This document shows, in pieces, positions 411-1,358 of a stretch of 4,533 nucleotides of DNA. The translations under genes and the position numbers were made by a program. The stretch comes from a virus (taxonomy: Duplodnaviria; Heunggongvirae; Uroviricota; Caudoviricetes), in IMG/VR virus record IMGVR_UViG_2778261182_000006, one strand, 5' to 3'. The notes under the pieces are model-generated. The model did no database searches, was not told where the DNA came from, and saw nothing but the letters and a program-made list of their open reading frames with translations. Position 1 is the first letter of the stretch. The number at the start of each line of letters is the position of its first letter.

Positions 411-1358
411 TTACCCCCTGAAGCCCGGCGGAATTTCGGTATCCGGTTCAGAAATGTGATTCACGCAACGCTGTACAGGCGAACGCCCCAGACGAATAAC
501 CAGCTCATCCCATTTTTCGCGAAGCTTTGACGGGCTCATGACGTTTTTTACCCAGAATGGATCCCGCTGTACCCGACCAAACATTTCGCAAATTTGTCTG
601 TGAGTTCTGCCATCCAGCATCCGCATTGTGCGCACATCATTGGCCCATGCAGTCCAGTTTGGTTCTTTCGGTCGCATGATTTCGCCATCATCGCTGGCAG
701 CCTGCTCGTAAAGACTCACGATTCGTCCCCAGATCCACTGCGCACACGCTAAATCTTCCTGGCTACCCCACTGGCGTTTTTTCGCACTGAACACAACCGC
801 GTCAGGGTGTCGGGTTAAAAAATCCTGTTCAGCCGTCTGCGGGTCCGGTTGCGAAGCGTCCGGACAAGAAGATCTTTTATCTGACGGATCAGGTTTTAAT
901 ACTGACGGATCGGGGCCAACCATCGCCCCCCTATCCGGCTGTTTTTTATCAATGGTTGATCCATCAAAATTTGAGGGGCCAACCGTTGAGAGGTCAATAT
1001 TTGACGGGTCATTTTTTACCGGGTTAATTTTTCTTTTCGGTTTATATGCCTCACGCGCCGCCGCTGCTGCTGCTTCGAGTTTTTCCACATTAAGACGGTA
1101 GATATTGCTTTCATTACGCCCACCGACCTTACGTTCCTCCTTCGTCAGCCAGCCGTTCTTTTCCAGTTCCGCTATCGCAGCTTTAACCGTTGATTCACTC
1201 TTTGCCCCAATCTGACGACGAATGGTCTCCACTGCAGGCCATGACACACCTTCGTCATTGCTGTAATCTGCAAGGCGAGCCATTACTGCCACCCTGGATA
1301 AGATCATGCCGGTGAAGGCACACCCTTCCCAGACAAGACCATGAAGCTTGCTGCTCAT
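411..1358 (-). CDS. Phage replication initiation protein: N-terminal DNA-binding (wHTH-like) region, low-complexity Pro/Asp/Ser linker, DnaT-like C-terminal domain
   Basis: 315-aa ORF from the track; GGAG about 7 nt upstream of the ATG (revcomp of 1365-1368). The C-terminus ...HISEPDTEIPPGFRG matches, by my recollection, the C-terminus of E. coli primosomal protein DnaT (...[14 protein letters not shown]). The N-terminal region (AVETIRRQIGAKSESTVKAAIAELEKNGWL) looks like a winged-helix DNA-binding segment. It lies downstream of the cro-like and cII-like genes, as O/ydaU-type replication genes do. The linker-encoding DNA contains iteron-like repeats, as in lambda O/ori. Confidence 0.8.
   Translation of the reverse strand: MSSKLHGLVWEGCAFTGMILSRVAVMARLADYSNDEGVSWPAVETIRRQIGAKSESTVKAAIAELEKNGWLTKEERKVGGRNESNIYRLNVEKLEAAAAAAREAYKPKRKINPVKNDPSNIDLSTVGPSNFDGSTIDKKQPDRGAMVGPDPSVLKPDPSDKRSSCPDASQPDPQTAEQDFLTRHPDAVVFSAKKRQWGSQEDLACAQWIWGRIVSLYEQAASDDGEIMRPKEPNWTAWANDVRTMRMLDGRTHRQICEMFGRVQRDPFWVKNVMSPSKLREKWDELVIRLGRSPVQRCVNHISEPDTEIPPGFRG
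878..1050. repeat. Iteron-like repeats and short palindromes followed by an AT-rich stretch inside the rep gene; putative phage replication origin
   Basis: Seen directly: CTGACGGATC at 881-890 and 902-911 (21 bp apart) and TTGACGGGTC at 1001-1010; GGGGCCAACC at 912-921 and 975-984; palindromes TTGATccATCAA (956-967) and GTCAAtatTTGAC (993-1005); AT-rich 1011-1050. The region encodes the repetitive linker (PSNIDLST / PSNFDGST). The ori assignment is by analogy to lambda, where ori lies within the O gene linker. Confidence 0.4.

Follow-up and report, generated by a model that had tools for sequence, protein, structure and literature searches.

Does the replication initiator gene of this prophage contain the origin at which its own product would act? 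The gene lies in a window of 4,533 bp (the whole stretch of DNA analysed here), and a sequence-only reading of that window had placed a putative origin at 878-1050, where repeated 10-mers, a duplicated element, short palindromes and an AT-rich flank fall within the initiator gene. The window is the immunity and early-right (replication) region of a lambdoid E. coli prophage. On its minus strand the gene order is Cro-like, CII-like, initiator and DUF977/Ren-like, and the genes needed for what follows are these:

1791-2063, minus strand: Cro-like gene (Pfam YdaS)
1382-1807, minus strand: CII-like gene (Pfam YdaT, PHROG 163)
411-1358, minus strand: O-like replication initiator gene, 315 aa (PHROG 391 "replication initiation O-like", E = 1.5e-113; Pfam HTH_36)
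2-370, minus strand: DUF977/Ren-like gene, the next after the initiator gene (Pfam/PHROG match)
2173-2574, plus strand: CI-like HTH_3 repressor gene
2605-3083, plus strand: PaaA2/ParE-type toxin-antitoxin pair, directly downstream of the CI-like repressor gene and within the immunity region

The initiator gene is widespread: 4001 of 5426 complete E. coli genomes match parts of it, and 1515 match most of it. No helicase-loader gene, whether P-like or DnaC-like, follows the initiator in the window, the DUF977/Ren-like gene being found there instead. The same arrangement, with a DUF977/Ren-like gene after the initiator and no loader gene, occurs at loci L002 and L003, in SfII (L088) and in phage Evi (L001). 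An ATP-binding DnaC/YdaV-like gene is present at L086 and L090, whose initiators have the same C-domain as that of the window, and both DnaC-like and DnaB-like genes follow the initiator of phiP27 (L089). The PaaA2/ParE pair is likewise present at L003 and L086. A search of 700-1400 for promoters and terminators found none.

An O-like initiator with a different DNA-binding domain

The initiator has a two-domain plan, in which an N-terminal DNA-binding domain is joined by a linker to a lambda-O-like C-domain, with a short tail at its end:

1059-1358, minus strand: winged-helix DNA-binding domain at the N-terminus (aa 1-100), which presumably reads the repeats (Pfam HTH_36, AlphaFold model)
495-830, minus strand: lambda-O-like C-terminal domain (aa 177-288; BLASTP against lambda O)
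414-476, minus strand: C-terminal tail (aa 295-315), VNHISEPDTEIPPGFRG, almost the same as the C-terminal end of E. coli DnaT

The Pfam HTH_36 match covers aa 25-71. An AlphaFold model of the N-domain (pLDDT 86) has four helices and a beta-hairpin wing, and its best structural matches are winged-helix proteins of the MarR, PadR and ArsR types, many of which have been solved on DNA. The predicted fold is a winged helix of the kind that binds palindromes as dimers. At the other end of the protein, the C-domain aligns with lambda O at 40% identity over 112 aa (BLASTP, E = 2e-25) and, judged by this alignment, is genuinely homologous to that of lambda O. Between the two lies a low-complexity linker (aa 103-175) rich in P, S, D, K and N. 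BLASTP gave no similarity to the N-domain of lambda O, only the C-domain aligning, and Pfam returned HTH_36 alone. Thus, the initiator is O-like in its architecture and C-domain, and is not a member of Phage_rep_O by its N-domain.

Comparison of the tail, QRCVNHISEPDTEIPPGFRG, with DnaT (PDB 2ru8, 6aep, 9zbt_D) showed that the shared sequence stands at the extreme C-terminus of both proteins. This likeness, together with the missing loader gene after the initiator, suggests that the tail may mimic DnaT and so bring in the host primosome or DnaB-DnaC. It is also probably the explanation for the name "primosomal protein I" given to such proteins in databases. The initiator of phage Evi has an unrelated N-domain, yet ends in the same DnaT-like tail.

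Six dyad-symmetric sites in the linker-coding DNA

Every element listed in the sequence-only reading is present in the sequence, including the short palindromes (e.g., TTGATCCATCAA at 955-966), and their location is as described, with 878-1050 encoding aa 103-161 of the initiator, in the linker-coding part of the gene. The repeated 10-mer CTGACGGATC is exact at 881 and 902, and TTGACGGGTC, at 1001, agrees with it at 8 of 10 positions. Exact copies of the duplication GGGGCCAACC are found at 912 and 975; rather than an element in its own right, this sequence (which reads GGTTGGCCCC on the coding strand) forms the flank of two 15-nt units. The earlier parsing missed this underlying order: on the coding strand, the region reads as four in-frame tandem 15-nt units (951-1013), a spacer, and then two GATCCGTCAG boxes. 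The tandem period is 15 according to TRF and 30 according to a separate repeat search. The four units are GACCCGTCAAATATT, GACCTCTCAACGGTT, GGCCCCTCAAATTTT and GATGGATCAACCATT, and they encode DPSNI, DLSTV, GPSNF and DGSTI, respectively. The sites are as follows:

951-1013, minus strand: tandem units, each a 14-bp dyad TTGA-N4-TCAA; 1013-1000, AATGACCCGTCAAA; 998-985, ATTGACCTCTCAAC
951-1013, minus strand: tandem units, continued; 983-970, GTTGGCCCCTCAAA; 968-955, TTTGATGGATCAAC
901-914, minus strand: conserved dispersed box CCCGATCCGTCAGT, containing GATC
880-893, minus strand: conserved dispersed box CCTGATCCGTCAGA, containing GATC, the last site before the module junction

The two dispersed boxes share CYGATCCGTCAG. 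All six sites in 880-1013 are dyads in which arms of TTGA or CTGA and of TCAA or TCAG surround four variable bases, and the array as a whole encodes aa 117-160 of the initiator. An origin of the lambda type would be expected to have at least four dyad-symmetric repeated sites in the linker-coding part of the gene, and six were found. The repeats exceed chance and are clustered: against an expectation of 4.3, the window contains 13 matches to GAYNNNTCA, 8 of which fall within 882-1011, and no second repeat cluster was seen in the window. The stretch 871-961 contains four GATC (Dam) sites in 91 bp, two of them within the GATCCGTCAG boxes.

The array is a constant feature of homologous loci

The sequence-only reading had proposed comparing the periodicity of the repeats in homologous prophages. 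In a scan that took one genome per bacterial species, we recovered 80 loci with the same N-domain, at 54-82% amino acid identity; the scan was seeded by a protein search with the 100-aa N-domain, the matches to which were mostly truncated fragments. These loci span the Enterobacterales, among them Erwinia, Edwardsiella, Morganella, Yersinia, Providencia, Rahnella and others. The same N-domain is found in the Shigella phages SfII and SfIV and in phiP27 and, more distantly, in Stx phages, with the Min27- and F403-type O proteins sharing it at about 38% identity.

A tandem 15-nt array of the same kind and position as that of the window, directly following the HTH_36 domain, was counted in 78 of 81 homologues, and no full-length homologue lacks one. 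The arrays have 2-10 tandem units, most commonly 5, and are usually followed by conserved boxes such as TTTGACCCGTCAGAATCTGG, GGGGATCCGTCAGTA and GATCCATCAGATAAA. Over the 81 loci, the motif has a density of 16.5 per kb in the linker vs 0.49 per kb in the remaining ca. 390 kb, a 33-fold difference. Copy number varies among relatives: the homologue from E. coli E7476 has one unit more than the window, and a length difference of 45 nt between two Edwardsiella species equals three units. The identity profile of the window against E7476 showed the array to be no more conserved than the rest, and this comparison was uninformative. At least one GATCCRTCA box is kept in 75 of the 81 loci, and GATC is enriched 2.7-fold in the linker across the family; this enrichment and conservation may reflect methylation- or SeqA-linked control of the origin.

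Selection appears to act on the DNA rather than on the peptide

Every unit is in frame and can be read as a pentapeptide repeat, which raises the question of whether the repeats are a mere DNA echo of a disordered peptide linker (D-x-S-x-hydrophobic), expanded by slippage and without function as DNA. Several observations are compatible with such an origin of the repeats. The linker is of low complexity, and the peptides DPS and SDxSK are common to the homologues. Copy number differs among close relatives, as slippage would give, and the unit spacings are all multiples of three, so that spacing alone is compatible with a role at the peptide level.

To separate the two levels, serine codons were counted at positions anchored on the amino acid pattern alone, [DEVGN]-x-S, with the same pattern elsewhere in the same genes as the control. 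Of 664 repeat serines in the linker, 547 (82%) are encoded by TCA, vs 44 of 402 serines elsewhere (11%), in counts that come from 79-81 homologues related by descent and so do not represent independent events. A second serine, the one just before the unit, is TCT in 70%, and lysine is AAA in 91% of linker cases vs 61% elsewhere. Despite the kinship of the homologues, the variable synonymous positions next to these codons show that there has been ample time for change. Codons are thus fixed by repeat position across genera while the amino acids vary, one position accepting D, E, V or G and a second one K, N, E or T; the central four bases of the units, and the residues that they encode, vary freely among homologues.

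Two further features lie at the level of the DNA. The arms of the units are complementary, with 3.05 of 5 positions pairing on average vs 1.24 in control in-frame 14-mers, a symmetry that would not be expected if selection acted on a peptide. Moreover, sites are found in either orientation, one and the same site then encoding different peptides (GATGGATCA vs GATCCATCA, and TTGACCCCTCAA vs TTGAGGGGTCAA). The fixation of TCA, the dyad arms and the use of both orientations speak for selection at the level of the DNA and not of the peptide. The peptide-echo explanation also fits poorly with the unrelated repeats that unrelated N-modules bear at the same place (see below), and we regard it as quite unlikely.

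The array is inherited with the N-terminal module

Many E. coli genomes and prophages match only 411-878 of the window, at 89-98% identity (megablast), which places a mosaic junction directly after the last box:

878-879, no strand: mosaic junction, separating the side with the N-domain and repeat module (879-1358) from that with the shared C-domain (411-878)

An E. coli 5283 prophage (L085, 2967-3200) carries an unrelated N-module on the same C-domain, joined at the same junction, and its linker has a repeat of its own, about five copies of ATYGGKTCAAAAYG that encode SIGSK or VIGSK. The L085 N-module is annotated as phage replication protein O. The partial match recurs in L086, judged from its match and annotation, and so does the gene length. 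More distant HTH_36 initiators have different dyad repeats of their own in this position: three copies of GGGGTGGGGCAGGAGCTGCCC in Min27 O, and CCTGTGCC...GCACAG units in ZF40 gp14. On this comparative evidence, the array is co-inherited with the N-terminal winged-helix (HTH_36) module, the two forming one exchangeable specificity module. L003 and L086 share an identical CI and differ in their annotated initiators; thus, the initiator module, and with it the array, is reassorted separately from the immunity genes.

Clades of the family differ in both recognition helix and repeat unit. Helix TV[KS]AAI is paired with the unit TTGAC..GTCAA, TVRTAI with TCTGAC..GTCARA, and TVITAI with TCTGAACGTTCAGA; in L081 and L084, TVITAI is paired with GAACGTTC. 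Exceptions are phiP27 and L083, where TVRTAI is found with GAAC units; because these break the simplest rule, we hold the covariation of recognition helix and repeat variant to be suggestive only.

The position of the junction, immediately adjoining the last box, could also be read as a sign that the repeats serve recombination or mark a module boundary, promoting the shuffling of N- and C-terminal modules and being kept for the mosaicism that results. The junction, however, lies outside the array, and the arrays differ completely between N-modules, the shared sequence starting only after them. The arrays therefore cannot supply homology for the exchange, and this explanation is highly improbable. 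What the loci have in common is an array that is conserved as DNA and not as peptide, is dyad-symmetric, varies in copy number and is inherited with the N-domain module.

The AT-rich flank is particular to the lineage of the window

The AT-rich tract that had been described as flanking the repeats is present in the window:

1009-1048, no strand: AT-rich tract, 72% A+T, adjoining the array; the most AT-rich 40-mer of the initiator gene

The tract is absent from most homologues, in which the mean A+T fraction just upstream of the arrays is ca. 0.49, and no conserved AT-rich flank was found in the family of homologues. The tract at 1009-1048 is likely a candidate unwinding element in the lineage of the window only. 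DnaA boxes (one mismatch allowed) and IHF consensus sites were at or below chance in the window. The sole DnaA-like 9-mer nearby, TTTTCCACA at 1081-1089, has one mismatch and lies ca. 30 bp beyond the AT-rich tract; it is not significant and was set aside.

Likeness to lambda and to other replication systems

The sequence-only reading had called the arrangement exactly that of lambda O and its origin. An iteron array in the linker-coding part of the initiator gene is indeed like that of lambda, but the word "exactly" does not hold. The likeness extends to several features. The initiator gene follows cro- and cII-like genes in the early right operon; the C-domains are homologous; and the iterons and AT-rich tract of lambda correspond to aa 117-160 of O, as the array here does to aa 117-160 of the initiator. 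In both, the sites are inverted repeats whose copy number differs between relatives, and the N-domain and repeats behave as an exchangeable specificity module. The iterons of lambda are described as inverted repeats, of which there are four in lambda and six in the Stx phages 933W and P27 (PMC7466680).

The differences lie in the repeat unit, the flank, the DNA-binding domain and the gene that follows. Here, the unit is a 14-bp dyad that recurs every 15 bp, abutting and in frame, whereas lambda has iterons of 18-19 bp, spaced by 20-24 bp and out of frame. The AT-rich tract is 5' of the array in the orientation of the gene and is unconserved in the family, whereas in lambda it is 3'. The N-domain belongs to Pfam HTH_36, another family than the N-domain of lambda O, and no P gene follows the initiator, the DUF977/Ren-like gene coming next instead.

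The published account of "P27", with a lambda-like O gene and six iterons (PMC7466680), is unlike the deposited phiP27 genome (L089, NC_003356). In the deposited sequence, 3001-3927 encodes the HTH_36 initiator L17, which has 15-nt arrays and is followed by DnaC- and DnaB-like genes. The described and the deposited phage may be different phages or constructs.

Theta plasmids with iterons (of the Rep_3, RepA or pi type) resemble the present system in having a winged-helix initiator that acts on multiple direct repeats, and their iterons may also serve in control. They differ in that monomers read their iterons, which are ca. 17-22 bp long, spaced by ca. 22 bp and located outside the rep gene, whereas the sites here are intragenic dyads. 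In phages of Gram-positive bacteria, such as SPP1 (oriL in gene 38) and the lactococcal phages TP901-1 and Tuc2009, replisome-organiser or rep genes contain origins. These share with the present locus the placing of the initiator's repeated boxes inside its own coding sequence, whereas their hosts, DNA-binding domains and repeat sequences are unrelated to those seen here.

The K-12 protein YdaU from the Rac prophage, considered as a possible relative, is a DUF1376 protein and belongs to another family, so the old literature on the Rac origin is not directly applicable. A further comparison is with the "Eru"-type, non-lambdoid replication modules of Stx phages, several types of which have HTH_36-containing proteins encoded beside cI (PMC8951638). 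The survey that defined their gene content in 2022 does not describe an origin and states that nothing is known of how these modules replicate (PMC8951638).

A probable origin core inside the initiator gene

We consider it probable that 880-1013 is the initiator-binding core of the prophage replication origin, located inside the initiator's own gene. Both the origin function and the binding of the repeats by the N-domain are inferred from the sequence comparisons described above. In the mechanism that we propose, dimers of the N-terminal winged-helix (HTH_36) domain would bind the six or so dyads and build a nucleoprotein complex resembling the O-some. Neighbouring DNA would open next, in the lineage of the window likely at the tract of 72% A+T at 1009-1048. 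The lambda-O-like C-domain would then bring in the host helicase, to which the DnaT-like tail may contribute. Early rightward transcription from the cro side would traverse the site, as in lambda.

The array might instead have a regulatory function, being bound by the initiator or by some other protein of phage or host, with the true start of replication elsewhere. Its roles could then include autoregulation, a transcriptional roadblock in the early operon, handcuffing for copy-number control or exclusion of related phages. Intragenic arrays of binding sites can serve as roadblocks or titration sites, and cloned lambda ori fragments are reported to inhibit phage growth (PMC3349717, PMC4488673). 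A regulatory role would also suit the lack of a conserved AT-rich flank in the family, as well as the 2.7-fold enrichment of GATC in the linker and its conservation in the two boxes. Against this, the position of the array, the dyad form of its sites, their variation in copy number and their linkage to the N-domain all match lambda, which is the sole system among those compared with a proven function, and no second cluster of repeats was seen in the window. We therefore think a purely regulatory array unlikely. The two roles are not exclusive, as iterons usually do both.

L090 (NZ_CP148542.1, pZ1322PEC0161-2) is a circular "plasmid" of 15,977 bp that consists only of the early prophage region from cI to lysis, in the manner of lambda-dv, with no other rep gene listed. 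Because both its O-like and its cII-like gene carry frameshifts, the record may represent a defective element or an artefact of assembly, and we did not count it as evidence of autonomous replication.

Novelty and implications

No description of an origin or of iterons for this HTH_36/O-like initiator family was found in the literature searched, the scope of which did not extend to older subscription literature. No origin is mentioned in the SfIV genome paper, and none is annotated in the phage records examined. The layout, with the origin inside the initiator gene, is already well known in phages; here it is combined with another DNA-binding domain and another repeat unit.

A bolder reading, which we put forward tentatively and consider doubtful, is that the HTH_36/O-like initiators define a distinct class of origin, with 15-bp "zipper" sites, no fixed AT-rich element and, in members without a loader, use of a DnaT-derived tail. 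The sites of such a class would be continuous, alternating inverted half-sites, CTGA-N4-TCAG-N3, kept in frame as pentapeptide repeats. The tail would have been copied from the restart protein DnaT and would recruit host DnaB-DnaC in the loaderless members. The class would be one of enterobacterial prophages, including several "Eru"-type Stx phages and the serotype-converting phages of Shigella.

In concept, the finding extends the lambda paradigm and introduces no new principle. The combination of position-specific codon fixation with dyad symmetry provides a simple sequence test that separates DNA elements hidden in coding sequence from true peptide repeats. If the proposed origin is correct, it would give a very common enterobacterial prophage module a testable origin and a consensus for the initiator site, TTGA/CTGA-N4-TCAA/TCAG, with a period of 15 bp.
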